Origin: an uncultured Gemmataceae bacterium | GTDB taxonomy: Bacteria; Planctomycetota; Planctomycetia; Gemmatales; Gemmataceae | NCBI GenBank assembly: GCA_963750165.1 | Contig: CAVVPN010000011.1 | Location: forward strand, 672,001 to 736,000 | Direction: 5' to 3' | Length of the DNA stretch: 64,000 nt | Shown here: in pieces, positions 29,915-59,822 of the stretch | Position numbering within the stretch: the first letter of the stretch is position 1 | How the letters are laid out: each line of letters starts with the position of its first letter | Notes under the pieces: model-generated | What the model was told of the DNA's origin: nothing | Seen by the model: the letters and a program-made list of their open reading frames with translations, nothing else | Database searches by the model: none | Made by a program: the position numbers and the translations under genes

Positions 29915-30003
29915 GGAGAGGTGGCTGAGTGGCCGATAGCACCGCTTTGCTAAAGCGGCGTGGGTGTCAAAGCCCACCGCGGGTTCGAATCCCGCCCTCT
30001 CCG
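29915..30003 (+). tRNA. tRNA-Ser(GCT)
   Basis: GGAGAGG/CCTCTCC acceptor stem, GCT anticodon, long variable arm, GGTTCGAATCC T-arm, G discriminator; CCA not encoded. Confidence 0.96.
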
Positions 30004-30197
30004 CTCTAACAACGACTTGCGGCGATTACTAGACACCCAGCAACAACCTGATTCTGGCTGCGGTAGGGATAGCGGTAGGGAAGGAAAACCCGGTAGGGAA
30101 ACGGGCGGTTTCTGACGACGCAAAGGGGGCGCCTCTGGAGTATGGAGGCGCCCCCTTTGCTGTTTTACTTCTCCCCGGTGACAGGCCGGCGGCCACC

Positions 30198-31909: not shown

Positions 31910-33724
31910 ATGTCCGAGCCGCGCACGTCCCGGCCCAAAAAAGCTCCGCACAACCCGCTGCTGCAATCGACCAGCCCGGCGCTGGCGGCGGACATCCTGG
32001 CGGAGGCGCAGTCGAGCCGGGTGGTGCTGCAGGAGTTCGTGCCGCTGGCCGAGAGCCTGGAGTGGGAGCTGGGCCAGGAGTACCTGCGCCAGCGCGGCAA
32101 CAAGGCGTTCATCGCCGACGCCAGCCCCGTCCCCTTCGTCATCAACAACGACGGCACCCTCTCGCGCCACGCCGCCGATGTCCTCTTCGCCTCCCTCGAA
32201 GCAGCTGAACAGCAGGGCGCGCTGGAGGACGAGATTTTCGTGCTGGAGCTGGGCATCGGCGTGGGGCTGTTCGCCCGCTACTTCCTCGACCACCTCCGCG
32301 ACCTGTGCGCCGAGCACGGCAAGGACTACTACGACCGGCTCTGCTACGTCGCGGCGGATCGCTCCGAGCGCATGCTTTTGGACGTGTGCCGCCACGGCGT
32401 GCTGGCCCAGCACCCCGGCCGCTACCGCCTCCGCCTCGTCGATGCAGTGGAGCCGGGCAAGCACCTGCCGCGCGACGTGTGTTTCCGCAAGGCGGGTAAA
32501 CAGCCGCTGCGGGCGGTGTTCCTGAACTACCTGCTGGACTGCCTGCCGGCGGCCGTGCTGGAGGTGCAGGGCGAGCAGGTCCGCCAGCTGCACGTGCGCA
32601 CCTGCCTGGCGCGGAACGTGCGGCTGGAGGACTACTCCGACCTCAAGGCCGACGCCCTGGTCAAGCGCCTGAAGGACAAGGACCCGACGGCCAAGCGCGA
32701 CCTGTTGGAGGTGTACGGGCTGTGCGCCTCGGAGTACGACTACCGGCCCGTGGACGTGAAGCAGCTGCCGCACGGGGAGTTCGCGCTGGCGTTCGGCCAG
32801 GGCAAGACCAACCGCATCCTGAACAGCTACGGGGCCATCCAGAGTTTGGAGCGACTCCTGGAGTTGGTGCGGGACGACGGCTTCATCCTGATGAACGACT
32901 ACGGGCAGACGCAGCTCTCCAAGGAGGACGAGTTCGAGCACCAGCGCTTCAGCCTGGCCACCTTCGTCGGCGTCAACTTCCCCCTGCTCGGCGCCTACTT
33001 CGGGGACAAGCCCGGCGTCACCTAGCTGGACCCGATGAACGAGGAGAGCAGCATCCACGCCCGGTTGCTGGGCCGCAAGGTGGCGCACGCGGCGCAGGAG
33101 CGCTTCGCCGAGCGCTTCGGCCAGAAGGCGCAGGAGAAGCTGCAGGAGCCGCTGCAGAAGGCGCGGGCCTGCGGGCGCGTGGGGCGGTTCGAGCTGGCCG
33201 CCGACTTCTACCGCCAGGCCCTCAAGCAGCAGCCGGCCAACTGGGTGCTGCTCAACGAAATCTCGATGTTTCTGACGTTCTCGCTGCGCGACCCGAAGGC
33301 GGGGGTGGACCTGGCCAAGGTGGCGCTGGCGCTGAACCCGACGCTGTCCGGCGAACTGTGGAACACGCTGGGCGACGGGCTGTTCGAGTGGGGCCGCACC
33401 GCCGAGGCCGCGTCGGCGTACCGGCAGGCGCTGCGGGTCAACGAGGCCGACGTGCGGGCGCGCTACAACCTGGCGTGGTGCCACCAGCGCGACCGCGACT
33501 TCCCGGCGGCGCTCGGGGTGCTGGCGGAGGCGCTGGGGCTGGACAAGACGGGGGAGTACCGCGAGCGGCTGCTGCACAAGCTGCAGGAGGTGCTGGGCCA
33601 GCAGGCGCAGCGGCATCAGCAGGAGTACCTGCGGTTGGTCAACCTGGTCAGCAAGTACGCCCCCAGCGACACCGACGAGCGGCCCCGGCCCGACCACGAC
33701 GGCGGCGGGCCGCGGCCGGACTGA
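31910..33724 (+). CDS. MidA/NDUFAF7-like SAM methyltransferase fused to TPRs, in-frame TAG at 33023-33025
   Basis: VLELGIGVGLFA..YVAADRS; both ORFs in same frame; TPR LWNTLGDGL..ARYNLA. Confidence 0.75.
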
Positions 33725-33766
33725 GCGGCGCGGCGGGGGCACTTCTTGCGTGGGGGAGGGACGGCG

Positions 33767-34600
33767 ATGAGCCTGGCGCAGATTTTGGGGCTGCAGCAGG
33801 GGGCGGGGGTGGCGGGGGCGGAGCCGCCCGGCGCGGAGGCGGACGTGTCGGTGCTGGCGCCGCCGGGGCTGGTCTCGGTGCTGGTGCCGTGCTGCGGTCA
33901 GCTGGAGTACACAAGGCTGTGCGTGCCGGCGCTCTTGCGGCACAGCCGCGCCCCCGTGGAGTTCGTCTTCCTGGACGTGGGCTCGCTGGACGGCACGGCG
34001 GAGTACCTGGCCGGGGTGCAGGCGGCGGCGGGTGCGCGCGTGGAGGTGGTGCGGACGGGGACCGACCGGGGGCTGGGCCAGGCGGTGGCCGAGGCGCTGG
34101 GGCGTTGCCGCGGCGAGTACGTGGTGCTGCTGAACAACGACACGGTGGTGCCGGAGGGCTGGCTGCAGCAGCTGACGGGGCTGGCGGCGCTGTCGCCGGC
34201 GCTGGGGCTGGTCGGCCCGATGTCGAACTACGCGGCGGCGCCGCAGCTGGTGGAGGCGGTGCCCTACCGGGTGGGGCCGCGGCGCGGGCCGCAGGCGGGC
34301 AGCTGGCTGGTGGATGCCGCGGAGGTGCAGGCGTTCGCGCGGAAGTGGCAGCAGGAGCACAAGGGCAAGTGGCACGAGGCGGAGCGCCTGGGCGGCTTCT
34401 GCCTGCTGGTCAAGCGGGCGGTGCTGGAGAAGGTCGGGCCGCTTGAGAGCGAGGCGGGGCTGGGGTTGTTCGACACCGACGTGCTGGGGGCGAAGGCGCG
34501 GCGGGCGGGGTACACGCTGGCGGTGTGCAAGGACCTGTTCGTCCACCACTTCGGCAGCCGCACCTTCGCCCACGGCGGGCCGGCGAGCGAGGCCCGCTGA
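33767..34600 (+). CDS. Glycosyltransferase family 2
   Basis: VSVLVP, DVGSLDGT, GEYVVLLNNDTVV, GFCLLV, FVHHFGS. Confidence 0.92.
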   Translation: MSLAQILGLQQGAGVAGAEPPGAEADVSVLAPPGLVSVLVPCCGQLEYTRLCVPALLRHSRAPVEFVFLDVGSLDGTAEYLAGVQAAAGARVEVVRTGTDRGLGQAVAEALGRCRGEYVVLLNNDTVVPEGWLQQLTGLAALSPALGLVGPMSNYAAAPQLVEAVPYRVGPRRGPQAGSWLVDAAEVQAFARKWQQEHKGKWHEAERLGGFCLLVKRAVLEKVGPLESEAGLGLFDTDVLGAKARRAGYTLAVCKDLFVHHFGSRTFAHGGPASEAR

Positions 34601-35060
34601 GCGCGGATGCGGCGGTGGTGGTTGAGCGTGTCCTGTGAAGTCTGCGGTTGTCAGGCGCTACCGTTGTGAAGCAAGTCGCCATGAACTATCGTTCACCCAG
34701 AGAGTATGAAAATGGGGTGTTGACGCCCATTGTCCTCCTTTTTTCAGAGTAGGGGTTCACCCTGCGCTGGAACCCCGGCATTGAGCGCCTGGACGGCCTG
34801 CGAGCAGGTGTCCAAGTCGTATTACGATTTTCAAAATCGTGTTATTGGGTCCTGACACCTTTTCTTTTCGCGAGATGCGCAGGGCATCGCAAACTTCCTT
34901 CTTGGTCAGCATGTGGTTCTCCTTCATGCGAAAAGAGGGGTTCGCTGTCGGGAGAACTGATAGAGCGCTCAAAAAGGCACTGCAAATGTTTCTGGACGTT
35001 TTTTGCCAAGAAGTTGGATGAAGACGGCGAGAACGAAGACGGCGGGATGATCGACGTGCT

Positions 35061-35218
35061 TTCGACGTTTGGACGTTCAGGCGTAACGGCGTAACGGCGT
35101 ATCGGCGTCGGGTGGGCTGGCGTGACCTTGGCGGCGTGGTCGCCGGAACGCCGAAAACGCCGGAACGTCGAAAGGTAGCGGTGGCTTCGGACGTTCAGGC
35201 GTAAGGGCGTAACGGTGT
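35061..35218. repeat. Arrays of 8-bp periodic (G/A)CGT-core repeats
   Basis: ttcgacgt ttggacgt tcaggcgt aacggcgt aacggcgt atcggcgt plus inverted units. Confidence 0.75.
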
Positions 35219-35744
35219 GGCAGGCGATCACGAGCGGCTAATAACCGGACCCGTGCAGGTGTACCACGCTTTGAACCGTTCCGGGGAGAAGTGCTTGCCG
35301 TGGTTGGCGTTGGCGGCGGTTGTTGTGGTGCTGTTCCAAGAAGCGAGCGGCAGGGCCAGGCAAACGCTTCTCTGGCGGGCGGGCTAATAACGCTGCGGGA
35401 GAGTGATCATGGCCGACGCCCTTGCTGGGCATCGGGGCCATCATGGTCGGCCTCGTAGTCCGTCTGCTGGTATTCATCTTGCTGGCCTGGCTGGTCTGGC
35501 GCTGGCTCTTCCAGGACCGTCAGAAGCCGGATGACGAAATCGGCGGCTTCCCGAATCTGCTGCTTCATCTGCTCGTTCATGGTGTGCCTCTCCCTTCTTC
35601 TGATCACGTCCGTTGTCGTCCATCTACTTCCATGACATCGAACTTAATCAGGCCGTTCGGTGTCGGACCAGTAAGGTACGGATTTCGCAGAAGGGTCAAA
35701 CCACGAAATAGAACATGCCTTTCAACCCCAGGAGAGCCACCGCC

Positions 35745-36470
35745 ATGACCGAAAACGCCGCCAACTTCGAGGCGCACAACGGAAGGGCGAAATCCGCCAT
35801 CGTCGCCCAGATCGTCCGCATCGTTCGGCGTGCTGGCCTCGACTACGCTGGCTGGCGCTATGTTGCCAAGCAGGTTCGCAAGGAATGCGACCTGCGCCCG
35901 GCGAAGAAGGGGCGCAAGCTCCCCCGCATTCTCCACACCGACGACTTCCGCAAGTTCTACAAAGCAGTGGATCAGGCTGAAGACGTGCAGCATAGCCTCA
36001 TGTTGCGGCTCATGTTCTTCACCGCCGTCCGGGTCAGCGAGCTATGCAACATCCTTGTGGCCGATGTGGACCTGGAAGCCTGCAAGATCAGGATCAACCA
36101 GGGCAAGGGCAGCAAGGACCGCTACGTCCTCTTCGGCAAGAGCTTCGCCACCGCCCTGCGGACGCACATCGCAGCGCATCCCAGCAACCGCTACCTGTTT
36201 CAGACCCGACGCAACACGAGATTCACGGCCCGCCGTGTTCAGCAGATCGTCCGGTACTACGCTGACCGTGCTGGTGTGAACGCCACGCCGCACACGTTCA
36301 GGCATCAGGCGATTTCGTGGCTGACGAAGCATTCGGGCCTGGCTGACGCCGAGTTGCAACTCATCACGGGCCATGCTCACCGTGAGACGCTGGCGATCTA
36401 CCAGCACGTTGCCCTGGATGGCGAGCTTGAGCAGCGCTACCAGGAAGCGATGAAGAAGGTGGACCTGTGA
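35745..36470 (+). CDS. Small XerD-like tyrosine recombinase (resolvase type)
   Basis: TAVRVSEL, GKGSKDRYV, TPHTFRH, GHA....IY. Confidence 0.93.
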   Translation: MTENAANFEAHNGRAKSAIVAQIVRIVRRAGLDYAGWRYVAKQVRKECDLRPAKKGRKLPRILHTDDFRKFYKAVDQAEDVQHSLMLRLMFFTAVRVSELCNILVADVDLEACKIRINQGKGSKDRYVLFGKSFATALRTHIAAHPSNRYLFQTRRNTRFTARRVQQIVRYYADRAGVNATPHTFRHQAISWLTKHSGLADAELQLITGHAHRETLAIYQHVALDGELEQRYQEAMKKVDL

Positions 36471-36475
36471 GCGGG

Positions 36476-36551
36476 GACGCCTGAACGCCGGAACGCCTAA
36501 ACGCCGGAAGTCACGAGCTTTGGACGTTCCGGCGTAAGGACGTAACGGCGT
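36476..36551. repeat. Second 8-bp periodic array
   Basis: acgcctga acgccgga acgcctaa acgccgga ... ttggacgt tccggcgt aaggacgt aacggcgt. Confidence 0.75.
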
Positions 36552-36719
36552 AGATGGTCCCAACGTTGCAAAGTTTCATCGACCGAACTCGGATGCGAGA
36601 GCTACCAGGCTGGTTCCATAGCCGGGCCTGGTGGAACGCAGACGCCCTCGTCTTCTTTCCAAAGTCGCCGCTACGCCGTTGAGCGAGGCCGAGCGGTAGG
36701 TCCATTTGGGTGGCGATTC

Positions 36720-37160
36720 TTACGGATTACAAGTCCATGTAACAACCAGGTCGGAAATCACTACGTCACCGCCTTGTTCAGTCACTGTGGCTCGCTTCCG
36801 GGAAATCAAATCCGGGCCTAGGCGTTCTCCAATAATGATCTTGTTGTTTTCCATATAAAACTTCACGACCGGATGAGGATCAAAGACGTTCACTTCCTGA
36901 TGGGCCTTGTCCGGCTTTTTCACAGTGCGCAATCCCCCGTCATCGATTACCCACCACCGCTTGATTATCCCGCCGATACTCGCAAACTCGATATCACCAT
37001 TCTCGGCTTCAGCAATGCAGATCTTTTCAAACGTAGGGTTTTCTGAAACTGACGCTTTGTATGTGACAAGCAAGTATTCCAGGAACTCAGGCGTTCGGTA
37101 GAAACGCCACAGCTCCGAGAGTTTCCTTGCTACCAGATCGGATAGAGTCGATTCATTCAT
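36720..37160 (-). CDS. Putative immunity protein
   Basis: Low-GC 146-aa ORF starting 1 nt after toxin stop. Confidence 0.75.
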   Translation of the reverse strand: MNESTLSDLVARKLSELWRFYRTPEFLEYLLVTYKASVSENPTFEKICIAEAENGDIEFASIGGIIKRWWVIDDGGLRTVKKPDKAHQEVNVFDPHPVVKFYMENNKIIIGERLGPDLISRKRATVTEQGGDVVISDLVVTWTCNP

Positions 37161-37161
37161 G

Positions 37162-40100
37162 TCAAAGCCCTGATGCCAAGGTCCTCTCAACAACCTCCAT
37201 GAAACGGCTATGCTGAGCCGGAGTGAATATCCCCGATTCAACTGCCCTTGTCAGACCAGCAGTCTCAAGAGCTTCGGCAGTCCATACGCCAGGTCGAACA
37301 TACTGCCCGGCCGCAAGATCAAAAACACGACCCTGGTATTGATAGGCAACGTGGTCAACGCCTCCACCAACACTAAAACCAAGTCGCTCTCCGCCTGGAA
37401 GCAGGCGTCTGAGTTCAGCGACAGATTGCTCACAGTCGATTACCCTGGCACCACTGCGATTAGTAGTGCGACCAACATTTCGAGCTTGTTGCATTGCGAG
37501 CCGCTCAGTTTGGCTCAACCCTGCAATTAGCTCTTGCGTTGTCTGGACATAGCGGTGCAGGACGGTGTGGGCATTTCCGGCGTATTGTGAGAAGCCAGGA
37601 ACGGTTCCTAATAACCGAGCGGCTTCGGCAGAGTTGCCGTTTCTGTATGCCAACGCAATTTGTTCAGAAATCTCAGCAAGAGATGCTCGACTTGGGATTG
37701 GTTGACCGGCTCGTTGTAGCGTTGTTCGGATGGTATTCATCACGTCACCGCCGCAAATCGTATTATGCGCCAGACCGAGAAGCCCCACTCCCGACTACCT
37801 ACAAAGTAAGTGTGATAGTCGCTAACCCGCAGGTTATAGACCGTGGCGACTTCGTTCAGGTCGGTGACGGCTTCGACGGTGACCCATTGGCCGTCATGTG
37901 AGGAGACCTGATCGCCTGTCTCAATCTCCTTCGCACTGATCCACCCCTTGCCGCGCACAAAAAACGGGTGTTCCCGCGTCGTGCGTATTTCGCGGCCACG
38001 CACGCGCAAGCTCATGATCAGCGCTTCGCGCACGAACGTCCGTTCGACAACTTTAACCTCAACCGGTCCATCGCAGTCTTCTTCCGTTCGCGACAGGATT
38101 TCGTCACCGACCTGGAACTCTTCGATAGGTTTCTCACCGTCAGGTGTTAGCAGCAGTGTCCCAGCAACGAAACAGGAGTTCAAGACCCGAAGCGCTTCGG
38201 CAATCTGCCCCCGCTGTGCTGCGATCCGGGTTAGTCGGAATACATTATTAGTTCCTTGCGCCTCTGCTGTCAATCTCGCTTCCGCCTGAAGCAAACGCCT
38301 CGCCGCTTCCTCGCGGGTGGCTGGGAAAGTAACGGTCTTTCCGGCGAACGGCGCGGCTAACTCAAGCCCAATCGCAAGCACTTCTGCGGTATTCGCAGCC
38401 TTATCACCGAATTCCTTTCGGATTTCCCGAATCGACCACCGCTCCTTGCCCGTAATATCACTGTGCAGTCCTTCCAACCCACGATAAACCAGGAACCACC
38501 CGAAGGGATTTCCTGTGAGTCCCGCCTTTGCTCCCCCAACGATGAGTGCCATGTTCCCGCCAGCGCTCAAAAACTTCGGCCCGTTTTCCTTCACATCAGC
38601 CCAAAGAGCAGACATCATCCCCGAAACGCTCCCGTACTGTTTATCTTTGTTGCTAGCATTGCCAGCGTGTGCGGCTTCTCGCTCGTCCAAGGCGGCTTTC
38701 TTGGCCGCTGCCGCTGCTTTTTGTGCCGCGATGTCATTCTCGTACTTTTGTTTCTGCGTCGGGCCTAACGGCTTCTCCTCTCTGACAGGAAGGGCATAGT
38801 TTATCCGCCCACCGTCTGCTTGGGTTGAGGCGAGAGGTTGTTTGGCCTGGCGGCTGGCGTTGTAATCCCCAGTGAAAACTCGTCCAAGGTGAGACTCGAA
38901 CAACTCCCGGAAAGCTACCACAGCCTCACCTGAGGATATGGAGGGGCTGATAATGGCAACCGGATATCGACCCTCCCACTCAGCGTGGCTATTGGAGAAA
39001 TAAGAACCACCAGATCGAATTACCCCCCCTCGTGCGGCAAACCATTTGTAGTAATCCCGAGTAGTCGAGTTATTCTCGAGGTAGAGACGGACACTCCCCT
39101 CGGTCCAATCTAATCCACTGGGGTCCGTTGCGTTCGTCGGGTCGTTGTTGGCGTATCTGTAGAGGTTGCTGTCGCCCGCGTCGAAGCCGAGCGGATCCTG
39201 GCTGATCCAGCGCCCGGTGGGCGCGTCGTAGTAGCGGCCGCGGTTGTACTGGAAGCCTGTCGCGGCGTCGAACTCGCGGCTGGTGTACTGGTAGCGGCCC
39301 GTCCAGGTGCTGTCCGTCTGGCTGACCACGTTGCCGTAACCGTCGTAGACGATCGTGTCCTTCAGCGCGCCCGTACCGTCGATCACGTCGCGCACCGACC
39401 CCTGCCGGTCCGTCAGCAGCCAGGCCACCGTCCCGGCCGCCGCCTCCCGCGCGAACACCTGGTCCACGCCGTCGCCGTCCAGGTACCTTGTTGTCAAAGA
39501 GCTGGAGCCGTTCAGGTCGGCCCACACCGCGAAGTTGGTGTTGTCGCTGGCGCTGCCCCGGGCCGGATCCCAGCCGTCCAGGGCGTAGCGCTGCACCGTA
39601 TCGACCACGCCGTCGCCGTTGCTGTCGATGTCCTGCTCGATGCGGTTGCCGTAGGCATCATACTTGAACGTCGTGCGGGAGAGAAGGGTGCCGCCGTCGG
39701 TGGCGCGGTCCTCGGCCCAGAGCAGTTCGTTCTTCTGGTCGTAGCCGTAAGTCCAGGTCTCGGCGCTGGAACCCTTGCTCTTCTTGGTCAGGTTGCCCTC
39801 GGCGTCGTAGGTGTACGTCCACGTCCCGTCCGTGGTCAGTTCGTTGCCCGTGCCCGTGCTGTAGCCCGTGTTGGTGCGGTTGCCCGTGCCGTCGTACGTG
39901 AAGCTGTTCGTGCCATCGGCGGTTAACTCGTTGTCGGCGTCGTAGGTGTAGCTGGTCGTGGTGCCGCCCTTGGTCTCGCTGGTGACGTTGCCGGCCGCGT
40001 CGTAGGTGTAGGTGTACTGCGCCACGGTGACGCCGCCGCCGTCCACGTCCAGCAGGCCCGTCACCTGCCCGGCCGCGTCGTAGCTGTAGAGCGAAGCGCT

Positions 40101-46100: not shown

Positions 46101-49100
46101 GTAGTAGCCGGTGGCGCTGACGGCGTAGGGCGCCTGCAGGGCCAGGGCGTAGGCGTCGTCGGCGCCGTGGCCGGTGGTGGCGAACGTGACCCAGCTGCCC
46201 GGCGTGCCGTCCCAGGTCAGCTGGGCCGCGAGGGAGTCGGGCACGCCCAGGGTCGGGTCGGGGGCGAAGTCCGCCTCGACGATCGGCTGCACGTCCACGG
46301 TCGAGCTGTGGTAGACCAGGGCCGGCTCGCCGCCCAGGGTCGGGTCGTCGGGGCTGCGGTCCAGGTCCAGCGGCACGGTCTGCTTGAGGTCACCGGTGGT
46401 GGGGGAGACCTGGGCCAGGCCGAAGGGCACCCACTCGGCCTGCTGCGGGTCGTCGGTGCGGACGGCGGCGGCCAGCGGCTGGACGTGGACCGTGACCGTG
46501 CCTGTGGCCGTGTACGTGCCGTCGCTGACCGTGTAGGTGAAGCTGTCGTCGTAAATCGCCGTCGGCACCGGCACGTAGGTGAACGAGCCGTCGGCGTTCA
46601 GCGTCAGGGTCGCCCCGGATGTCAGCGTGACGGCGACGCCCACGTCCGTGGCGCTGCCGTTCACCTTGGACACCGTGAGCGTGCCGCCCAGGCCGTCGTC
46701 ATTGTCGCCGGCCAGCACGCCGGTCCCCGGCCCCACCGCCAGCGTGGCGTCGCGCGTGATGCCGTAGCTGACGGCGTTGGCCACCGGCTGCGGGTGCTGC
46801 ACCTTCACCACGAAGGCGTCCGAGCCGCCCCCGCCGCTGGTCGTCTGGTACGCCCCCGACGTGACCGGGAAGTCGGTGGACGCCGTGGTGCCGACCACGT
46901 AGGCGTTGTCGGAGCCGTCCACGGCGATGCCCCAGCCGACGTCCTCGCCGCTGCCGCCGAGGTAGCTGGAGTAGCCGATCGTGTCCGTGGCGGCGTTGAC
47001 CCGCGTCACGTAGGCGTCCTCGTAGCCGCCCGGGCTGCCCTGGAAGGCGTAGGCCGTCGGGAAGCCGTATTGATCCGTGTAGCCGGTCACGTAGGCGTTG
47101 CCGTCGCCGTCCAGAGCCACGCCGTAGGCCGTGGTCGAGTAGGCGGTGCCGCCCAGGTAGCTGGAGAACAGCAGGGCGCTACCCGCGGCGTTGAACCGCG
47201 CCACGAAGGCGTTGGGGTTGTACGTGACGGTGCTCTGGAACGGGGACTGGGTGGGGAAGTCGGCGGAGAAGGTCCAGCCGACCACCCACGCCTGCCCGGA
47301 ACTATTCAGCGCGATGGCCGCGCCGAAGTCGTAGTACGAGCCGCCCAGGTAGGTGGAGTAGACCAGGGAGGAGCCGTCGGCGGACAGCTCGGTCACGAAG
47401 GCGTTGCTGTCCCCCGCCAGGCTCGTCTGGTACGCCCCAGAGGTGGTCGGGAAGTCGGTCGATTCCGTCACCCCCGTCACGAAGGCGTGGCCGCTGCCGT
47501 CCACGGCGATGCCGTAACCGACGTCGTAGTAACTGCCGCCCAGGTAGGTGGAGTAGTCGATGGCCGAGCCGGAGGCGCTGACCTTCATTACGAAGGCGTG
47601 GATGCCGCCCACCAGGCTCGTGTGGAACGCCCCGCTGGTGGTCGGGAAGAAGTTGGACGACGTGGAGCCGGTGAGGTAGGCGTTGCCGCTGGCGTCCAGG
47701 GCCAGGCCGCCGCCGGCCCCGACGTCTAGCACGTCGTAGCCGCTGCCCAGGTAAGTCGAGAACGCCAGCGCCGAGCCGCTGGCGTTCAGCTTGGTGAGAA
47801 AGATGTCCGAGCCGCCGACGAATGAGGACTGGAGCGCCCCGGAGGTGATCGGGAAGTCGGTCGAACTGGTCGTGCCCGCCAGGTAGACGTCGCCCGAGCC
47901 ATCGACGGCGAGGGCCGGGCCGATGTCCGCGGAGTCGTAGTTGCTGCCGCCCAGGTAGGTGGCGTACAGCAGGGTGCTGCCGGTGGGGTCGAACTTGGCC
48001 ACGTAGACATCGGTGTCGCCGGCGTTCGTGCTGTACAGGGGATCCTCGGTGGGCAGGTCGGTGGAGTAGGTGGAGCCCGCGACGTAGAGGTCGCCGCCGG
48101 GGCCGACGGCGATGCTGGAGCCGTAGTCGGCGCCGCTGCCGCCGAAGTAGCTGGCGAAGCTCAGGACGGGGTCGATGACCAGGGGCCGGCTGGCGTCGTA
48201 GGCGCCCAGGGCGACCGTCACCGTCCCGTCGGCCGCCAGGCTGTAGTGGGCCGCGACGGTCTGGCGTCCGTCGGGGCCGTCCTGGTAGGCGACCGGGGCG
48301 TGCTGCACGAGGTCGCCGCCGTTGGTGTGGACGACCAGGTCGCCCTGGCCGTCGAGGGCGAGGCCCTGCGCCCCCTGCAGGCCCACGTGGATGGCACCCG
48401 GGTCGGCGCCGGGGGAGACGACGAAGTCGTACTCCAACTGGTCTTGGGCGTTGCCGTAGTACAGCAGGTCGATGCCGGGGTAGACGTCGTCGTACCGCAC
48501 CTGGCCGTAGTTGACGACGTTGGTTTGCCAGCGGTCGGGGTCGTTGCCGAGGAAGTAGTTGGTCCGGGCCTGCAGCTCGTCCAGCCCCTCAGCCTGGGCG
48601 TCGGCGTTGGCGCCCTCCAGTTGCAGCCGCACCTCGGCGGTGTCGCGCGGGGCGGGGGCCGCTGGCCGCACCAGCCCCTGCGGCAACAGCGCGGCCGTGG
48701 GGGACTGCGCGACGGTGGTGGTGGTGAGGTCGGTCGTGGCCGGGCGGCTGAGGGCGATGACGGCCGCGTCCGCTTCGAGGTAGACGCCGGCGTCGGCGCC
48801 GCGGGCGACGAACTGGACCTGGGGGTCGGCCTGCCCCTGGTTGGCCTCGAAGCGCAGCGCCTGCGCGGCCAGGGCGGCGGCGGGCGGGGGCGTGAGGTTG
48901 GCCAGGACCAGGCGCCGCTCCAGTACGTCGAAGGCGGGACGGGTCTGGCGGAACAAGGGGCGGTCGGGGCGGCGCGGGCAGGCGCAGCCAGGCGGTCAGG
49001 CGGTCAGGCGGGCCAGTGCGGCGGCGGCCCGCTCCGACCAGTGGAAGAGCTGGTCGTAGAACCGGGTGCGGCGGAGCCAGACTCGGAGGTTGGTCGAGCG

Positions 49101-49103
49101 CAT
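37162..49103 (-). CDS. Giant RHS/YD-repeat polymorphic toxin: LEPR-XLL-like motif, SBBP propeller, Ig-like, RHS core, Hint domain, papain-like tip (TGA at 48996-48998, frameshift ~37771)
   Basis: VLERRLVLA; YSTYLGGS repeats; YD repeats; QDPLGF..YRYANNDPTNATDPSGL; CFVAGT..TREHPF..VYNLRV..AHN. Confidence 0.92.
40740..44500 (-). repeat. Tandem 126-bp coding repeats with 756-bp higher-order duplication
   Basis: 42-aa unit repeated about 30 times; sequence at 42361 recurs at 43117. Confidence 0.92.
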
Positions 49104-49299
49104 GGCGGTCCTTCACGGGGACGGCGCGGCCGCGTGGGTGGCGCCGGGCACGTACAGCCTGTTCCAGCGGAGCGTTGGCCGGCGTTGGGAAGGGAGGGCG
49201 GGGGCAGGCGCGTCGGAGGGTGCGGGCGCCTGTCCCGACCGGCTTACCGGGCGGCGAACGGTCCTGGTCCGAATTCACCGATTCACCAGACGAGGGGTG

Positions 49300-49329
49300 A
49301 AAGTAACCTGCCGGATTGCAGCTTGTCAA
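49300..49329 (-). promoter_or_regulatory. Putative sigma70 promoter for the RHS gene
   Basis: TTGACA-N18-TACTTT on minus strand in AT-rich divergent intergenic region. Confidence 0.45.
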
Positions 49330-49437
49330 ATGAAAAATCTCCGGAATTTAGAAAAAGGAGAAAATGTGCTCGCCGCCTGAAGTGGCGGGGCGGATAATGC
49401 CGGGGTCGCAAGTCCCGTCCGTGTCGAGAGCTCAAAC

Positions 49438-52400
49438 ATGCCCCGCCACCTGTACGGACCGGTTCGCCGGGCCTTCGCCGACGACCACCTGCGCGCCTTC
49501 CGCGCCCGCGGCGAGTGCCTGGCCTTCGGCCCCGAGCCGGGCCTGGATCTGACCGTGGGGCCGGCCGACTCCTGGGAAGAGATCCGGGCGCGGCTGCCCG
49601 CGGGCTGGGAGCCCGACTTCGTGGCGCTGCGCCCCGACGCCTACCTGCCGGTGCCGGCCGGGCTGTGGCCGGCACCGGTGCCGCTGGTGGCGCTGGCCGG
49701 CGACTGGCACCTGCTCTGGCACGCCCTGCGCCTGCAGCTGCCGCGCTGCGAACTGGTGCTGAGCGACGCCGCCGGGGCCGAGACCCTGGCGCGGCAGGGG
49801 CTGGGCCACGCCCGCCCGGCACTGCTCTACGGCTGCGGCGACTCCTGGGCCGATGCCGCCGCGCCGGACGGGCCGCGCGACCTGGACGTGGTCTTCGTGG
49901 GCAGCTGCCGGTCGGCCACCCAGGGCGGTCGGCTGCCCTGGCTGGCCCGCCTGGCGGCGCTGGCGGGCCGGCGGCGGGTGGTGATCGCCGCCGGCGTCTT
50001 CGGCGCCGACTACCGGGCGCTGCTGGGCCGCGCCAAAATCGTCTTCAACCACGCCGTCCGCGGCGAGTGCAACCAGCGCGTCTGGGAGGCCGTGGCCGCC
50101 GGGGCGCTGCTCTTCCAGGAGGCCGGCAACCGCGAGGTGCCCCGGCTGCTGGCCGACCGCCGCGAGTTCGTTGCCTACGACGACGCCAACCTGGAGGGGC
50201 TGCTCGACCACTACCTCGACCAGGAGGGCGAACGCCGCGCCGTCGCCGCCGCGGCCCGGTCCCGCCTGCCCGAGTTCACCTTCGCGCGCCTCTGGGGGCA
50301 ACAACTCGACCGGATCGACCGTGCCCTGCCCGGCCTGCGGGAGCGCGCCGGCCGGCGCCGGCAGGCCCCGGACGAGCTGCTGGCCCTGCGCCTGGGGCAG
50401 CTGCTGCACTGCCCGGCGGGGTCCGACCCCAACCTGGTGGCCGCGCTGCGCGTTGCCGCGGACGCCCGGCCGTCCGCGGCGGCGCTCAACGCCCTGGCCG
50501 TGGCCCTGGCCCACGGCGCCGGCGGGGCGGGGGCCGTGGGCGAGCCGCTGGGACTGCTGCGCCGCGCCGCGGCGGCCGACCCGGCGCACCCGGTCGTCGG
50601 CCTGAACCTGGCCGAGGCGCTGGCCGCCGCCGGTGACGTCGCCGCGGCGGCCCAACAGGCCCACCGCGTTGTGGGACTCCTGGACGGCCCCGGCGCCGAC
50701 GCGGCGGCCTGGGACGCGCCGCCGTGGCCGGCCGGGTTCGACCACCTGCGTGTCGCCTGGGAGCGGGCCGCCTGGCAGCACGCCGGCGATCCGGCCGCCG
50801 AGGCGCGGGCCAAGGCCGAGTTGGCACGCTGGCGGCTGCGCGCCCTGGTGGCCCGCCACAGCCGCCGGCCGGACGACTTCCGGGCGGCGGTGCGGGAGCG
50901 GCCGGACTTGCCGCCGACGCGGGCCGCCCTGGGGCTGGCCCTGGCCCACGCCGGCCGGCCGGCCGAGGCGTCGGCCGAGCTGCGGCTGGCGCTGGCCGCC
51001 GCCCCCTTCGACCGCCAGACCGCCCGCGCGCTGTACGCGGCGCTGGGGGCGGCCGCCGACTGGCCTGGGCAGCACCGGCTGGCCCACGACCGCCTGCGCC
51101 TGCACCGGGCGGCCCCCGGCCTGGTGCCGGCCGAGCCCTGGTTCCCCGACGGCCCCACGCCCGCCGCGGACGCCGCTACCCTTGCCGAGGGTCCGGTGGG
51201 GGTGGCATGGGAGGGGAACCTGTACGCGCTGTTCTCGATGGCCCTGGTCAACCGCGCCCTGGCCGCCCGCCTGTCGGGACACGGCATCGACCTGACGCTG
51301 TTGCCCACCGACCGGCCCGGCGCCGCGCCCCTGCCGCCGGAGCTGGCCGGGCGGTGCCACGACGCCCCGGCGGAGGGCGTGGAGGTCCACGTGCGGCACG
51401 GCTGGCCGCCGGACTGGTCGCCGCCGCCGTCGGGCCGCTGGGTGGTCTACCAGCATTGGGAGTACGGCAGCCTGCCCCGGGAGTGGCTGCGGCCCCTTGC
51501 CGAGCAGGCCGACGAGGTCTGGGTGATGAGCGCCTACGCCCGCCGCTGCTTCGTGCAGAGCGGCGTGCCCGCCGACCGCGTCTTCGTCGTCCCCGGCGGC
51601 GTGGACATCGCGGCGCTGACCCGGCCGCGGCCGCCCTTCCCGCTCCGAACTCAGAAGAGGTTCCGCTTCCTGTTCGTGGGCGGCACGCTGGCCCGCAAGG
51701 GCTTCGACGTGCTGCTGGCGGCCTACGCCCTCGCCTTCCGCCGGGCCGACGACGTTTGCCTGGTGGTCAAGGATCTGGGTGCCGCCTCCTTCTATCAGGG
51801 GCAGACGGCCGGGGAGGCGGTCGCCCGCCTTCAGGCGGACCCGGACGCCCCCGAGGTCGAGTACCTGGACCGCGACCTGGGCGAGGACGAACTGGCCAGC
51901 CTGTACCAGAGCTGCCACTGCCTGGCGTACCCGTACCGGGGCGAGGGGTTCGGGCTGCCGATCGCCGAGGCGATGGCCTGCGGCCTGGCAGTTATCGTCA
52001 CCGGCCACGGCGCCGCCCTCGACTTCTGCGACGAGCAGACCGCCTACCTGGTCCCCGCCCGGGAGCGGCGGTTCGCCCACAAGCGCGTGGGCGACCTGGA
52101 GACGGTGGATCACCCCTGGCTGGCTGAGCCTGACGCGGGCGTGCTGTGCCGCCTGCTCCGCCACGTCGTGGAACACCCCGAGGAGGCGCGGGCCAAGGGC
52201 CGGGCGGCCGCCGCGTACGCCGCCGCGCACCTCACCTGGGAACGGGCCGCCGACCGGGTGCTCGAGCGCCTGCGCCACCTGGGCCATCGGCCGACCCGCC
52301 GGCCGGGCCGGCCGGCGGCGGTCGCGCCCGCCCCCGCCGGACCCCGGCCGCGGGTGTCGCTGACGATGATCGTCAAGAACGAGGAGCAGAACTTGCCGGT

Positions 52401-55400
52401 CTGCCTGGCCTCGGTGGCCGACCTGGTGGACGAAATCGTCGTCACTGACACCGGCTCGACGGATCAGACCAAGGAGGTGGCCGCAAAGTTCGGGGCGAAG
52501 GTGGTGAACTTCGCCTGGCAGGACAGCTTCGCCGCCGCGCGCAACGCCGCGCTGGTGAACGCCACCGGCGACTGGGTGCTGTGGCTGGACGCCGACGAGC
52601 ACCTCGACGAGCAGAACCGCGGCCGGCTGCGCGCCCTGCTGGAGCGGCTGGGCCGGGAGAACGTCGGCTACCTAATGCGGCAGCACTCGCCGCTGGAGGG
52701 GCCGGGCCAGGCGGCCGTCGTGGACCAGGTGCGGCTCTTCCCGCGCCACCCGGGCCTGCGCTGGCGCCACCGCGTCCATGAGCAGATCCTGCCGGGGCTG
52801 CGCGAGCTGGGGGCCGACGTGCGGGCCAGCGGCGTGGTCGTCACGCACACCGGCTACACCGACCCGGCCCTGCAGGGACCCAAGGTTGAGCGCAACCTGC
52901 GGCTGCTGCTGCTCGACCACGCGGAGCACCCCGAGGAGCCGTTCACGCTGTACAACCTAGGGGCGGTGGCCCTGACGCGGAGGCGGCCCGCGGAGGCTCT
53001 GGACTGGCTGACGCGCAGCCTCCGGCACAGCCGGCCGCGCGACTCGCTGCTGCGCAAACTGCATGCGCTGCTGGCCCGCTGCCGCCACCAGCTGGGCCAG
53101 CCCGAGGAGGCGCTGGCGGCCTGCCGGGCGGGGCTGCGGCTCTACCCCGATGACGCCGAGTTGCTCTTCTGCGAGGCGGTGGTGCGCCGCGCCCGGCGGG
53201 ACCTGGAGGGGGCGGCGGCGTGCCTGCGGCGGCTGTTGCGGGCGCCGGCCCGAGTCAGCCTGTCCGGTGCCGACGCCCTGCTGCGCGGCCCCCGGGCGCA
53301 CCAGCAATTGGCCGAGGTGCTGCAGGAGCAGGGTCGGGCGGCCGAGGCGGAGGTACACTGGCGGGCGGCGCTGGCGGGCTGCCCGGCGCTGGCCGTCGCC
53401 CGGCTGGGGCTGGCGCGGCTGTACCTGGGGCAGGGCCGCTGGGACGAACTAGAGCGCGTCGTGGCAGGGCTGGGGGGCGAGCCGCGGCTGGCGGCGGAGG
53501 CGGCGCTGCTGCGCGGCGAGGGGCTGCTGGCCCGGCGGGAGTACGCGGCGGCCCGTGCGGCGCTGGCGGCGGCGGCCGCGGCCCGCCCGCGGGCAGTACG
53601 GCCGCGGCTGCTGCTGAGCCGCGCCTGGCTGCAGGAGGGCCGGGATCCGGAGGCCGCCGAGCGAGCGCTGCGCGACGTGCTGGAACTGGACCCCGGCCAG
53701 CCCGAGGCGCGGCACAACCTGGACGTGCTGCTGCGCGAACAGGGCAGGCCCGCGGGTGACGTCGCGGCGGGGGCGGTCGCGCGGCCGTGGGTCTCCGTTA
53801 CGATGATCGTCAAGGACGAGGAGGCAAACCTGCCCGACTGCCTGGAGTCGATCCGCGGCCTGGCGGACGAACTCATCGTCGTGGACACCGGCTCGTCCGA
53901 CCGCACGAAAGAAGTGGCGGCCCGCTACGGGGCGAAGGTGTACGACTTTCAGTGGCGGGACAGCTTCGCGGCGGCGCGCAACGAGGCGCTGCGGCACGCG
54001 ACGGGGGCGTGGGTCTTCTGGCTGGACGCGGACGACCGCCTCGACGAAGAAAACCGCGCGAAGCTCCGCGGCCTGTTCGCCACCTTGAAGGACGAGCCGG
54101 CGGCCTACCGGATGACGTGCCTGTGCCTGGCCGGGCCGGACGGCCGGGAGACCGAGGTAGACCACCTGCGGCTGTTCCGCAACCACCCGCAGCTGCGCTG
54201 GGACTACCGCGTCCACGAGCAGGTCCTGCCGGCGGTGCGCCGCCTGGGCCACGCGGTGCGCCGCGCGGGCGTGGTGGTCCGCCACGCCGGTTACCGGGAC
54301 CCGGCGGTGCTGGCTCGCAAGCGGGACCGCGACCTGCGCCTGCTGGAACTGGAGGCCCGGGAGCGGCCGGCCGACCCGTTCGTGCTGTTCAACCTGGGCC
54401 AGGCGCTGCACCACCGGGGGCGGACGGAACAGGCGCTGGCCTGCTTCCGCAAGAGCCTGGCGGGCTCGGCCCCCACGGACTCGATCGTGCGCAAACTGTA
54501 CGCACTGATCGCCCAGGGCCTGCTGCGGCTGGGCCGGACCCGCGAGGCGCTGGCGGCCTGCCGGGAGGGGCTGGGGCGCTGCCCGGACGACCTGGAGCTG
54601 CTGTTCGAGGAGGGGGCCCTGCTCCGCGGCCAGGGGGACGCGGCCGGGGCGGTGGCCTGCTGGGAGTGGTGCCTGCGGCTGCCGCCGGGGGAATACTTCG
54701 GCAGCGTCAACCCGGGGCTGCGCGGCCACGTCACTCGCCACCAACTGGCGCTGGCCTACCGCGACCTGGGGAGGCCGGCGGACGCCGAGGCGCAGTGGCG
54801 GGCGGCGCTGGCGGAGCGGCCCGACTACGAGCCGGCCTGGCGCGGCCTGGCCGAACTGCTCAACGCCCAGGAGCGCTGGGTCGAGGGGCGGGAACTGGCG
54901 CAGCAGGCGGCCGGTCCGATGGGGCTGCTGTTCGTGGCCTGCCTGCGCGGCCGCACCCAGCTGGCCCGCAAGAACTTCGCAGAGGCCCGCAGGCGCCTAT
55001 CCGACGCGGTGGAACGCTGGCCGCGGGCGGCCGAGCCGCGGGCGCTGCTCAGCCACGCGCTGCTGCAGGAGGGCCAGGACAGGCCGGCGGCCGAGCAGGC
55101 TCTGCGCGACCTGATTGGGGTGCACCCCGGCAACGACGAGGCGCGGAACAATCTCGCGGTACTGCTCCGCCGGCAGGGCCGCTTCGCGGACGGGGCGGTG
55201 CCGCCGGAGTTGACGCTGGCCGACCTGTACCGGAGGTTCTGCCGCGTGACGTCGGCATCGGGTGAGCAAATGTCGGCGCTGTACCTGCTGGCGCGGCAGT
55301 GCCGGCGCGTGGCCGTACTCGGCGCCGCGCGGGAAGGGGCCGTGACGGCGCTGCTGTTCGCCGGCCCCGCCGCCCTGACGTTGTGCGGCCTGACGCGCCC

Positions 55401-55767
55401 TCCGGAGGCAGACTTGGTGGCGCCGCTGGCGGGGCAGACGCGGTTCATCGTCCAAGAGGCGGACGCGCTGACGGCGGCGCCCGCAGAGACGGACCTGCTG
55501 GTCATGAGTGGCTGGCGCGCCTACGACCAACTCCAGGAAGGGCTGGGGCGGCACGCCGGCACGGTCGCTCAGTTTATCGTGCTGGACGGGGTGGCCGACT
55601 TCGGCGCGCCGCAGGGGGCCGGCGGCTACCGGGGGCCGTGGCCGGCGGTCGAGGAGTTCCTGGCCCGGGGTGACTTCCGCCTGCGTGAGCGGCTGGGCGG
55701 GGGCAGCGGCCTGACCGTGCTGGAGCGCGCTGCGCCGGTGACGGATCGTGGCCACCGCAGACAGTAG
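49438..55767 (+). CDS. 2109-aa multidomain glycosyltransferase: CgeB-like GT, TPR, GT4, two GT2-TPR modules, C-terminal methyltransferase-like domain
   Basis: RAKIVFN..NQRVWEA.AAGALL; RKGFDVLL..YRGEGFGLPIAEAMACG; twice VS.TMIVK.EE..DTGS.D..WLDAD..HEQ; ETDLL....W..YDQL..FIVLD. Confidence 0.93.
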   Translation: MPRHLYGPVRRAFADDHLRAFRARGECLAFGPEPGLDLTVGPADSWEEIRARLPAGWEPDFVALRPDAYLPVPAGLWPAPVPLVALAGDWHLLWHALRLQLPRCELVLSDAAGAETLARQGLGHARPALLYGCGDSWADAAAPDGPRDLDVVFVGSCRSATQGGRLPWLARLAALAGRRRVVIAAGVFGADYRALLGRAKIVFNHAVRGECNQRVWEAVAAGALLFQEAGNREVPRLLADRREFVAYDDANLEGLLDHYLDQEGERRAVAAAARSRLPEFTFARLWGQQLDRIDRALPGLRERAGRRRQAPDELLALRLGQLLHCPAGSDPNLVAALRVAADARPSAAALNALAVALAHGAGGAGAVGEPLGLLRRAAAADPAHPVVGLNLAEALAAAGDVAAAAQQAHRVVGLLDGPGADAAAWDAPPWPAGFDHLRVAWERAAWQHAGDPAAEARAKAELARWRLRALVARHSRRPDDFRAAVRERPDLPPTRAALGLALAHAGRPAEASAELRLALAAAPFDRQTARALYAALGAAADWPGQHRLAHDRLRLHRAAPGLVPAEPWFPDGPTPAADAATLAEGPVGVAWEGNLYALFSMALVNRALAARLSGHGIDLTLLPTDRPGAAPLPPELAGRCHDAPAEGVEVHVRHGWPPDWSPPPSGRWVVYQHWEYGSLPREWLRPLAEQADEVWVMSAYARRCFVQSGVPADRVFVVPGGVDIAALTRPRPPFPLRTQKRFRFLFVGGTLARKGFDVLLAAYALAFRRADDVCLVVKDLGAASFYQGQTAGEAVARLQADPDAPEVEYLDRDLGEDELASLYQSCHCLAYPYRGEGFGLPIAEAMACGLAVIVTGHGAALDFCDEQTAYLVPARERRFAHKRVGDLETVDHPWLAEPDAGVLCRLLRHVVEHPEEARAKGRAAAAYAAAHLTWERAADRVLERLRHLGHRPTRRPGRPAAVAPAPAGPRPRVSLTMIVKNEEQNLPVCLASVADLVDEIVVTDTGSTDQTKEVAAKFGAKVVNFAWQDSFAAARNAALVNATGDWVLWLDADEHLDEQNRGRLRALLERLGRENVGYLMRQHSPLEGPGQAAVVDQVRLFPRHPGLRWRHRVHEQILPGLRELGADVRASGVVVTHTGYTDPALQGPKVERNLRLLLLDHAEHPEEPFTLYNLGAVALTRRRPAEALDWLTRSLRHSRPRDSLLRKLHALLARCRHQLGQPEEALAACRAGLRLYPDDAELLFCEAVVRRARRDLEGAAACLRRLLRAPARVSLSGADALLRGPRAHQQLAEVLQEQGRAAEAEVHWRAALAGCPALAVARLGLARLYLGQGRWDELERVVAGLGGEPRLAAEAALLRGEGLLARREYAAARAALAAAAAARPRAVRPRLLLSRAWLQEGRDPEAAERALRDVLELDPGQPEARHNLDVLLREQGRPAGDVAAGAVARPWVSVTMIVKDEEANLPDCLESIRGLADELIVVDTGSSDRTKEVAARYGAKVYDFQWRDSFAAARNEALRHATGAWVFWLDADDRLDEENRAKLRGLFATLKDEPAAYRMTCLCLAGPDGRETEVDHLRLFRNHPQLRWDYRVHEQVLPAVRRLGHAVRRAGVVVRHAGYRDPAVLARKRDRDLRLLELEARERPADPFVLFNLGQALHHRGRTEQALACFRKSLAGSAPTDSIVRKLYALIAQGLLRLGRTREALAACREGLGRCPDDLELLFEEGALLRGQGDAAGAVACWEWCLRLPPGEYFGSVNPGLRGHVTRHQLALAYRDLGRPADAEAQWRAALAERPDYEPAWRGLAELLNAQERWVEGRELAQQAAGPMGLLFVACLRGRTQLARKNFAEARRRLSDAVERWPRAAEPRALLSHALLQEGQDRPAAEQALRDLIGVHPGNDEARNNLAVLLRRQGRFADGAVPPELTLADLYRRFCRVTSASGEQMSALYLLARQCRRVAVLGAAREGAVTALLFAGPAALTLCGLTRPPEADLVAPLAGQTRFIVQEADALTAAPAETDLLVMSGWRAYDQLQEGLGRHAGTVAQFIVLDGVADFGAPQGAGGYRGPWPAVEEFLARGDFRLRERLGGGSGLTVLERAAPVTDRGHRRQ

Positions 55768-59763: not shown

Positions 59764-59822
59764 CTTTGCTAAAGCGGCGTGGGTGTCAAAGCCCACCGCG
59801 GGTTCGAATCCCGCCCTCTCCG
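59764..59822 (+). repeat. attR: duplicated 3' 59 nt of tRNA-Ser
   Basis: Identical to 29945-30003. Confidence 0.97.

Follow-up and report, generated by a model that had tools for sequence, protein, structure and literature searches.

A 64,000-nucleotide (nt) stretch of DNA from an uncultured Gemmataceae bacterium (phylum Planctomycetota; GenBank assembly GCA_963750165.1, contig CAVVPN010000011.1, positions 672,001 to 736,000 of the forward strand), hereafter the window, contains a mobile island in which the gene of a giant RHS toxin lies next to, and divergent from, the gene of a 2109-amino-acid (aa) enzyme with four glycosyltransferase (GT) domains and tetratricopeptide repeats (TPRs). The pairing of such enzymes with giant proteins recurs in dozens of related species. 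The host genome measures 9.6 Mb, has 66% G+C and is 93% complete. An exact 59-bp direct repeat delimits 29.8 kb of the window (Table 1), and this segment is a tRNA-integrated genomic island, having a tRNA gene and an adjacent integrase at one end and a repeat of the 3' part of the tRNA at the other.

Table 1. Features of the island and its borders, in window coordinates (nt; ORF, open reading frame)
Feature	Position	Strand	Basis and remarks
tRNA-Ser(gct), integration site	29915-30004	+	ARAGORN; 3' part 29945-30003 is the left copy of the direct repeat
Island tyrosine integrase, 433 aa	30198-31499	-	Phage_integrase, 34.9 bits
MidA/COG1565-like methyltransferase (Methyltransf_28), 371 aa	31910-33025	+	PF02636, 25.3 bits against a cut-off of 23.3, a marginal pass
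TPR protein, 229 aa	33035-33724	+	TPR families (Pfam); same frame as the methyltransferase
Small GT2, 284 aa	33746-34600	+	Glyco_tranf_2_3, 62 bits; conserved partner of the methyltransferase-TPR gene
Xer-like tyrosine recombinase, truncated	35715-36470	+	Phage_integrase, 105 bits; catalytic part only, NCBIfam XerA profile matched only over positions 71-257 of 263
Immunity candidate	36720-37160	-	ATG at 37160, one base from the toxin stop; low G+C at third codon positions
C-terminal toxin domain, 202 aa	37165-37770	-	Open frame differing from that of the RHS body; frame change directly past the HINT motif
RHS giant, 3738 aa	37740-48956	-	Pfam, NCBIfam
About 32 near-regular tandem units of 126 nt (42 aa) in the RHS gene	40470-44500	-	Repeat analysis
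Soluble four-GT/TPR enzyme, 2109 aa	49438-55767	+	Pfam, NCBIfam; divergent from the RHS gene over a 482-bp spacer
PrimPol-DUF3987 replication gene of the island	56234-58627	-	Pfam
Right copy of the 59-bp repeat, island end	59764-59822	+	Repeat search

The cargo genes named in a preliminary description of this DNA were all recovered in place from ORFs, Pfam and NCBIfam matches and codon-position G+C. The same description held that the island has no flippase, polymerase or sugar-nucleotide gene, and this agrees with our Pfam and NCBIfam scans of the window genes, which also reveal no lipid-carrier or membrane-bound glycosyltransferase in the island. No Pfam family was matched by the four remaining small island ORFs.

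The 2109-aa enzyme is built from a CgeB-like Glyco_trans_1_2 domain and TPR half (aa 1-570), a GT4 domain (about aa 650-945), two modules each composed of GT2 and TPRs (aa 966-1437 and 1446-1920) and a tail of 190 aa (aa 1920-2109). Three TPR blocks occur along its length, and one more is found on the methyltransferase of the island. The D-A-D motif is kept in both GT2 modules, and no membrane-like segment is seen in any island enzyme, the highest Kyte-Doolittle mean over 19 residues being 1.75. When the N-terminal domain of the enzyme (N-domain) was compared with the PDB, a single sequence retrieved nothing and a profile gave TPR matches only. The tail had been called methyltransferase-like, which seems a fair label: the tails of three relatives score 14.7-22.3 bits with Methyltransf_24 (under the cut-off of 26.3), and in the protein Atlas the tail lies near clusters that partly carry PF13578 (Methyltransf_24) or PF04989 (RMNT_CmcI), at scores of 0.95-0.96. 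Neither the family score nor the S-adenosylmethionine (SAM) motif is found in the window copy, however; its tail has no Pfam match, the SAM-type motif of the relatives (E-L-G-T-R-x-G-V-S-T) is degenerate in it, and its methyltransferase-like tail is probably inactive.

Among solved structures, the second GT2-TPR module is most similar to the flagellin glycosyltransferase GmaR (E = 2.4e-32 over about 190 aa), followed by SunS (2e-18) and a ThuS-like enzyme (1e-13), and the TPRs of O-GlcNAc transferase are also among the best matches. The order of a GT2 domain followed by TPR or other helical repeats, together with the similarity to GmaR and SunS, places the module in the GmaR/SunS type as far as sequence comparison goes. 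Membership in the SunS family proper is ruled out, since the module reaches 119.6 bits with the SunS model TIGR04195, far under its cut-off of 350. The N-terminal domain of GmaR is described as adding GlcNAc to flagellin, and its TPR domain has been proposed to recognise flagellin (PMC9638930). Sugar transfer to a protein or peptide is accordingly the function predicted for the GT2-TPR modules from homology. That the island enzymes modify proteins had been suggested before, and their kinship speaks for it: the closest characterised relatives (GmaR, SunS and MidA) act on proteins or peptides, and the enzymes have no membrane-spanning segment. Each catalytic unit that could be identified falls, by homology, into a family whose studied members work on proteins or peptides or lengthen glycans.

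Near the left end of the island lies a cassette of three ORFs in one common reading frame, encoding a methyltransferase, a TPR protein and a small GT2. A single in-frame TAG (33023-33025) parts the methyltransferase ORF from the TPR ORF in the assembled sequence, while the relatives encode both as a single ORF of about 560-780 aa. The MidA-like methyltransferase-TPR fusion that had been proposed is therefore real for the family, but it is interrupted in the window copy. PDB sequence searches with the methyltransferase gave no match at E ≤ 0.1. An AlphaFold2 model of it (pLDDT 76.7, pTM 0.77) was compared by Foldseek, and ranks 1-6 are all COG1565/MidA structures (4g67, 4f3n, 5zu0, 1zkd with two chains, and 5ztz), with E between 2e-7 and 1.6e-5 and probability 1.00, at TM-scores of only 0.30-0.48. 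According to this model, the protein has the COG1565/MidA fold. All 12 aligned sequences share its SAM-type G-x-G-x-G motif without change, and protein arginine methylation may be its activity, as predicted from the MidA likeness. A stretch of about 300 bp (34376-34675), made up of the 3' end of the GT2 gene and some 75 nt beyond it, has six further copies in the genome at 80-91% identity (blastn), two of which adjoin RHS genes other than that of the window, at C11:903-913k. The copies could be left over from the same cassette or mark a recombination boundary.

The giant itself is an RHS/YD-repeat polymorphic toxin, as seen from both its repeats and its Rhs core. From the N-terminus it comprises an LE-x-R-type motif, DUF7948, six SBBP stretches, Big_9, more than 2000 aa of YD repeats, the Rhs core and PT-HINT. 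RHS_repeat (PF05593) scores 701 bits over 40 stretches and TIGR01643 498 bits, the Rhs core model TIGR03696 matches aa 3204-3282 with 67.7 bits (cut-off 32.5), and PT-HINT gives 72 bits, the ORF stopping 17 residues beyond it. The preliminary description spoke of an RHS toxin of about 4000 aa with an immunity candidate; the RHS/PT-HINT toxin and the candidate are present, but the 3738 aa of the body and the 202 aa of the toxin domain lie in two frames. The toxin tail has no Pfam or NCBIfam family and protein Atlas scores of at most 0.88, the immunity candidate has no family in the same databases and Atlas scores below 0.9, and neither has relatives among the fetched loci. The frame change near 37770 and the TAG at 33023-33025 may be either genuine lesions or assembly errors. 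Within the tandem array of the RHS gene, a 756-nt higher-order duplicate (42283-42708 against 43039-43464, 99-100% identical) points either to recent expansion inside the gene or to a risk of misassembly, the genome being a long-read one. The island also has a mosaic composition, with 55% G+C at 36000-39000 (the toxin and immunity end) and 75-78% at 49000-55000 (the large enzyme), compared with 66% for the genome.

The linkage of the large enzyme to giant genes was surveyed with the N-domain, using one genome per species. The scan gave 76 loci, separated into 34 close relatives (at least 120 bits) and 42 distant relatives matching in the GT core only, and any gene with a match to RHS, DUF7948, Big or PT-HINT was counted as RHS-type. 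Such genes are present in 18 of the 34 close-relative loci, 13 of them divergent from the enzyme gene at 47-3454 nt, and in only 1 of the 42 distant-relative loci, which come mostly from other phyla and serve as the control. Among loci with 2 kb or more of DNA upstream, the count for close relatives is 17 of 26 (by hand). As a base rate, about 2.4% of the host genome, the one genome from which this figure was taken, lies within 10 kb of an RHS-type match. Seven of 41 related genomes hold an N-domain homolog, and the flanks from six of these seven contain, as neighbours of the homolog, RHS/DUF7948/SBBP giants, Calx-beta/beta-propeller giants or PT-HINT genes. Across the family, the N-domain occurs in 55 of 252 genomes (E ≤ 1e-30). 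This family-wide search added 13 loci with long flanks, eight of which have a tblastn match to RHS, PT-HINT or a Ser/Thr-rich giant. The others comprise one locus with an SdrD_B/PKD giant (more than 3889 aa) and one with two family-less giants, in the divergent position in both cases, one with a 710-aa LE-x-R protein upstream, one in which no giant was seen and one with too little flank.

Enzyme copies that are only 40-60% identical still keep their adjacency to giants, although gene order and strand vary between genomes. In the N-domain tree (43 sequences; 9 of the 52 source sequences were excluded, lacking a 400-aa match), RHS-linked copies are found all over the tree on long branches, and sister copies can pair with differing giant types, as for L165 and L166. 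The linkage is hence real and old and survives rearrangement; the partners are giant secreted proteins, among which RHS toxins form the commonest class. Coincidental co-location of the enzymes and the RHS gene is rejected on these neighbourhood data. Two of the surveyed loci show other neighbours upstream of the homolog: a GT41-TPR gene resembling O-GlcNAc transferase lies directly upstream in L044 (36-2471), and a type VI secretion TssK gene together with a 713-aa FG-GAP protein with an LE-x-R N-terminus is found in L050 (2-3597). The host genome also has two genes for the type VI secretion sheath protein TssC (VipB) at C3:940-943k.

The methyltransferase cassette gives a similar picture. It is found, as Methyltransf_28-TPR plus GT2, in 25 of the 252 family genomes, and the small GT2 follows the methyltransferase-TPR gene in 18 of 20 loci with flanks. 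RHS matches occur in 12 of these 20, and in most of them the cassette lies downstream of an RHS gene of equal orientation. The recurrent linkage to RHS and LEPR-like giants that had been anticipated for GT-TPR and MidA-TPR homologs is thus seen for both enzymes. In L138 the cassette comes 1.3 kb past the end of the RHS ORF, a gap that may leave room for an immunity gene, while L150 has the convergent layout of the window. The two enzymes also tend to share genomes, the N-domain being present in 16 of 25 genomes with the cassette versus 39 of 227 without it (hand cross-tabulation). The cassette is multi-copy in some genomes, at about seven places in G053 and with nine matches in G060, several of them beside RHS genes.

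The pairing was also followed in complete genomes. In G088 (10.1 Mb), RHS matches are found at two loci only, each beside one of the two N-domain copies, and one of these loci has the order enzyme and RHS gene, immunity gap, methyltransferase-TPR, GT2. The sole RHS locus of G090 adjoins its sole enzyme copy, and in G089, where there is no RHS match, the enzyme adjoins the SdrD_B/PKD giant. One RHS match of G088 (C1:5674700-5675608) falls within an 8255-aa open frame adjoining a copy of the large enzyme.

A second locus of the host genome illustrates the range of partners. Contig C6 carries homologs (45-52% identity) of the N-domain and the GT2/GT2-TPR part, which are divergent from a 2547-aa giant. 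This protein has 32% Ser+Thr, an LE-x-R-type N-terminus and no Pfam family, and behind its gene comes a series of PT-HINT toxin cassettes, seven or more in number. They are orphan cassettes, one of them with a WHH nuclease, and the 58-kb contig (L001-L003) further contains insertion sequence elements, a DUF3987 primase and a partial type I-C cas set (a Csd1 fragment, Cas7, Cas4 and Cas1). The partner is not specifically an RHS protein: Ser/Thr-rich family-less giants, an SdrD_B/PKD giant, Calx-beta/beta-propeller giants and an FG-GAP protein take the same position. What the examined partners seem to share lies at the N-terminus, where an LE-x-R-x-hydrophobic motif behind a basic stretch is found in 6 of 14 partner ORFs by regular expression and in five more by eye; motifs of this type are also present in the window RHS protein, the C6 giant, L177, L178 and L183. 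The label LEPR-XLL used in the preliminary description is not supported by NCBIfam, which returned no such family when the RHS protein and, at E ≤ 1, the N-termini of eight partners were scanned, although short motif models of this kind may slip past the scan filters.

The recurrent GNVT/GNLT of the window RHS protein had been regarded as a possible acceptor motif. The protein has 74 N-x-S/T sequons, compared with about 36 expected by composition, and 54 GN[VL]T, and these motifs occupy fixed places in the YD repeat unit. Linked RHS proteins elsewhere have between 0.25 and 2.9 sequons per 100 aa, and several fall below the composition expectation (8 vs 22.8, 18 vs 23.5 and 3 vs 6.8). Sequon enrichment is hence rejected as a general feature of linked RHS proteins; since sequon density is not conserved, GNVT/GNLT is a property of the repeat unit of the window copy and not a conserved acceptor.

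Gene content, island boundaries, the conserved pairing with giants in Gemmataceae and the kinship to GmaR/SunS and to the MidA/COG1565 fold are the directly observed basis for any explanation. The one we favour, with moderate confidence, is that soluble TPR-bearing enzymes glycosylate, and probably also methylate, the adjoining giant exoprotein in the cytoplasm before it exits the cell. The TPR blocks would dock the giant, the partners seen having the N-terminal LE-x-R-type motif in common; the GmaR/SunS-type module would then attach the first sugar, the CgeB-like, GT4 and small GT2 modules would lengthen the glycan, and the methyltransferases would cap the glycan or modify arginines. Such decoration may serve stability, export, adhesion or self-marking. 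More tentatively, we propose that Gemmataceae possess a mobile system for 'dressing' secreted proteins, in which TPR-guided mega-enzymes and a MidA-type methyltransferase may glycosylate and methylate RHS toxins and Ser/Thr-rich giants in the cytoplasm.

Several observations weigh against this explanation. Sixteen of the 34 close loci have no RHS-type match, eight of them with less than 2 kb of upstream DNA, and other unlinked close loci adjoin MoxR/bpX genes, cas genes, a GT41-TPR gene or a DegT/radical-SAM cluster, at which the enzyme homolog is a short stand-alone protein. The relatives are kin and the elements mobile, so that the counts overstate independence, and the base rate comes from a single genome. 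The host genome has four further giant RHS/DUF7948 loci, and neither a glycosyltransferase nor a methyltransferase lies close to any of them. Of about seven RHS regions in G127 just one is linked, and in G003 the enzyme and RHS genes are 39 kb apart. No common acceptor motif was found among the linked giants. The window copy looks partly decayed, with the TAG between methyltransferase and TPR, the frame change before the toxin, the degenerate tail and a truncated recombinase nearby. Finally, the support for modification comes from neighbourhood and homology throughout.

Four other explanations can be set against cytoplasmic modification of the giant. The enzymes might modify another target, such as an exported protein, the S-layer or a receptor, and thereby give the producer resistance to, or recognition by, its own giant, for instance through kin marking or receptor masking. 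The enzymes do travel with the toxin on mobile elements (integrase and PrimPol in the window, a TrwC relaxase in G013, integrases in L069 and L145), the linkage outlasts swaps of partner type as a producer-side function would, and many giants in the host genome lack enzymes. We nevertheless regard this as rather unlikely, because the island contains no membrane-bound or lipid-carrier glycosyltransferase, flippase or polymerase and all its enzymes are soluble, the tight divergent or operon layout with the giant gene is the pattern of enzyme-substrate pairs such as HMW1/HMW1C, and the toxin domains vary while the enzymes stay constant. If the main task of the TPR-enzyme fusion were to keep very long secreted proteins unfolded, as a chaperone, or to pass them on to the export route, as an adaptor, with catalysis minor or unrelated, the three TPR blocks of the large enzyme and the one on the methyltransferase would be accounted for, as would the fact that the examined partners have only their size and an LE-x-R-type N-terminal motif in common. 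GmaR even provides a precedent for a second, non-catalytic job performed through helical repeats (PMC9638930). Such a role seems improbable as the main one, however, given that four GT domains are retained across copies only 40-60% identical, the D-A-D motifs are intact and the G-x-G-x-G motif of the methyltransferase is invariant in all 12 aligned sequences.

Hitch-hiking, in which toxin and enzyme genes are merely frequent cargo of the same mobile islands without a functional tie, would fit the patchy distribution of both enzymes (55 and 25 of 252 genomes, multi-copy in G053 and G060) and the integrases, primases or relaxases often found near enzyme loci. We think it quite improbable all the same: the adjacency is immediate (gaps of 47-3454 nt), is kept at 40-60% identity despite changing gene order and extends, in two complete genomes of 9-10 Mb, to every RHS locus that was found, whereas the other island cargo is not conserved. 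The remaining alternative holds that these are ordinary flagellin or general protein-glycosylation enzymes located here by chance. GmaR is indeed the best solved match, but the host genome, 93% complete, has no match to Flagellin_N, Flagellin_C or FliF, and no flagellar gene turned up in Pfam scans of the homolog neighbourhoods; the usual substrate of GmaR-type enzymes is therefore not found in this host, and we consider this alternative very improbable.

Cytoplasmic modification of the giant by the enzymes encoded beside it would have parallels among known systems. HMW1 with HMW1C, the serine-rich repeat proteins with GtfA and GtfB, and AIDA-I with Aah all combine cytoplasmic dedicated transferases with the gene of a very large secreted protein next door. 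The window island has the same logic of transferase genes beside a giant gene, and the giants rich in Ser/Thr (C6, L168, L177 and L183) look similar to substrates of the serine-rich repeat type. Unlike the adhesin systems, the window has no GT41 domain (Pfam), GT8 or heptosyltransferase, the neighbour is an RHS polymorphic toxin and there is a MidA-type methyltransferase in addition. The glycocin S-glycosyltransferases SunS and ThuS (PDB 7msp, 7msn, 7msk; TIGR04195) likewise have a GT2 domain joined to a helical-repeat domain and glycosylate a peptide encoded next door, but that neighbour is a small bacteriocin, whereas the window enzyme lies beside a 3738-aa protein. GmaR of Listeria monocytogenes (PDB 22ao; PMC9638930) resembles the GT2-TPR module in having an N-terminal GT2 followed by TPRs, in being soluble and in having a protein as acceptor. 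It differs as a single module with an anti-repressor domain that acts on flagellin, while the window enzyme fuses two such modules with a CgeB-like glycosyltransferase, a GT4 and a methyltransferase-like tail, and its gene adjoins an RHS toxin. The MidA/NDUFAF7 protein arginine methyltransferases (PF02636, COG1565; PDB 5zu0, 4f3n) belong to the same Pfam family as the window methyltransferase and are its top Foldseek fold; the window type differs in being fused to TPRs in relatives, in lying beside RHS genes and in having no link to respiratory complex I.

Within the same phylum, the S-layer protein of Kuenenia stuttgartiensis is a large surface protein heavily O-glycosylated at many sites with a methylated O-glycan (PMC5088730). 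That organism belongs to another order and the protein is a different one, the term 'glycosyltransferase' does not occur in the main text of that paper and the paper shows no tie to the window genes. In the literature searched, which did not extend to subscription journals, we found no description of glycosyltransferases linked to RHS genes, and in the portions of a polymorphic-toxin survey available to us (PMC3482391) glycosyltransferases appear only as toxin domains. The island matches the logic of dedicated glycosylation of giant adhesins and of TPR-guided flagellin glycosyltransferases, and differs from these in the RHS link, the combination of enzymes and the MidA-type partner.

RHS toxins have been studied as self-contained protein capsules, and an accessory modification system is not described in the literature searched. 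If the proposed modification is true, it would be the first case of a system dedicated to modifying an RHS toxin, and these would be the first glycosylated RHS toxins; glycosylation and methylation would then add a new layer to the biology of interbacterial toxins. A GmaR/SunS-related family of mega-enzymes would also gain its first named natural substrates, in a lineage in which flagellum genes were not found, and the substrates of GmaR/SunS-type and MidA-type enzymes would extend beyond flagella, bacteriocins and respiratory complexes. For the Planctomycetota, the island would provide a genetic handle on protein glycosylation.

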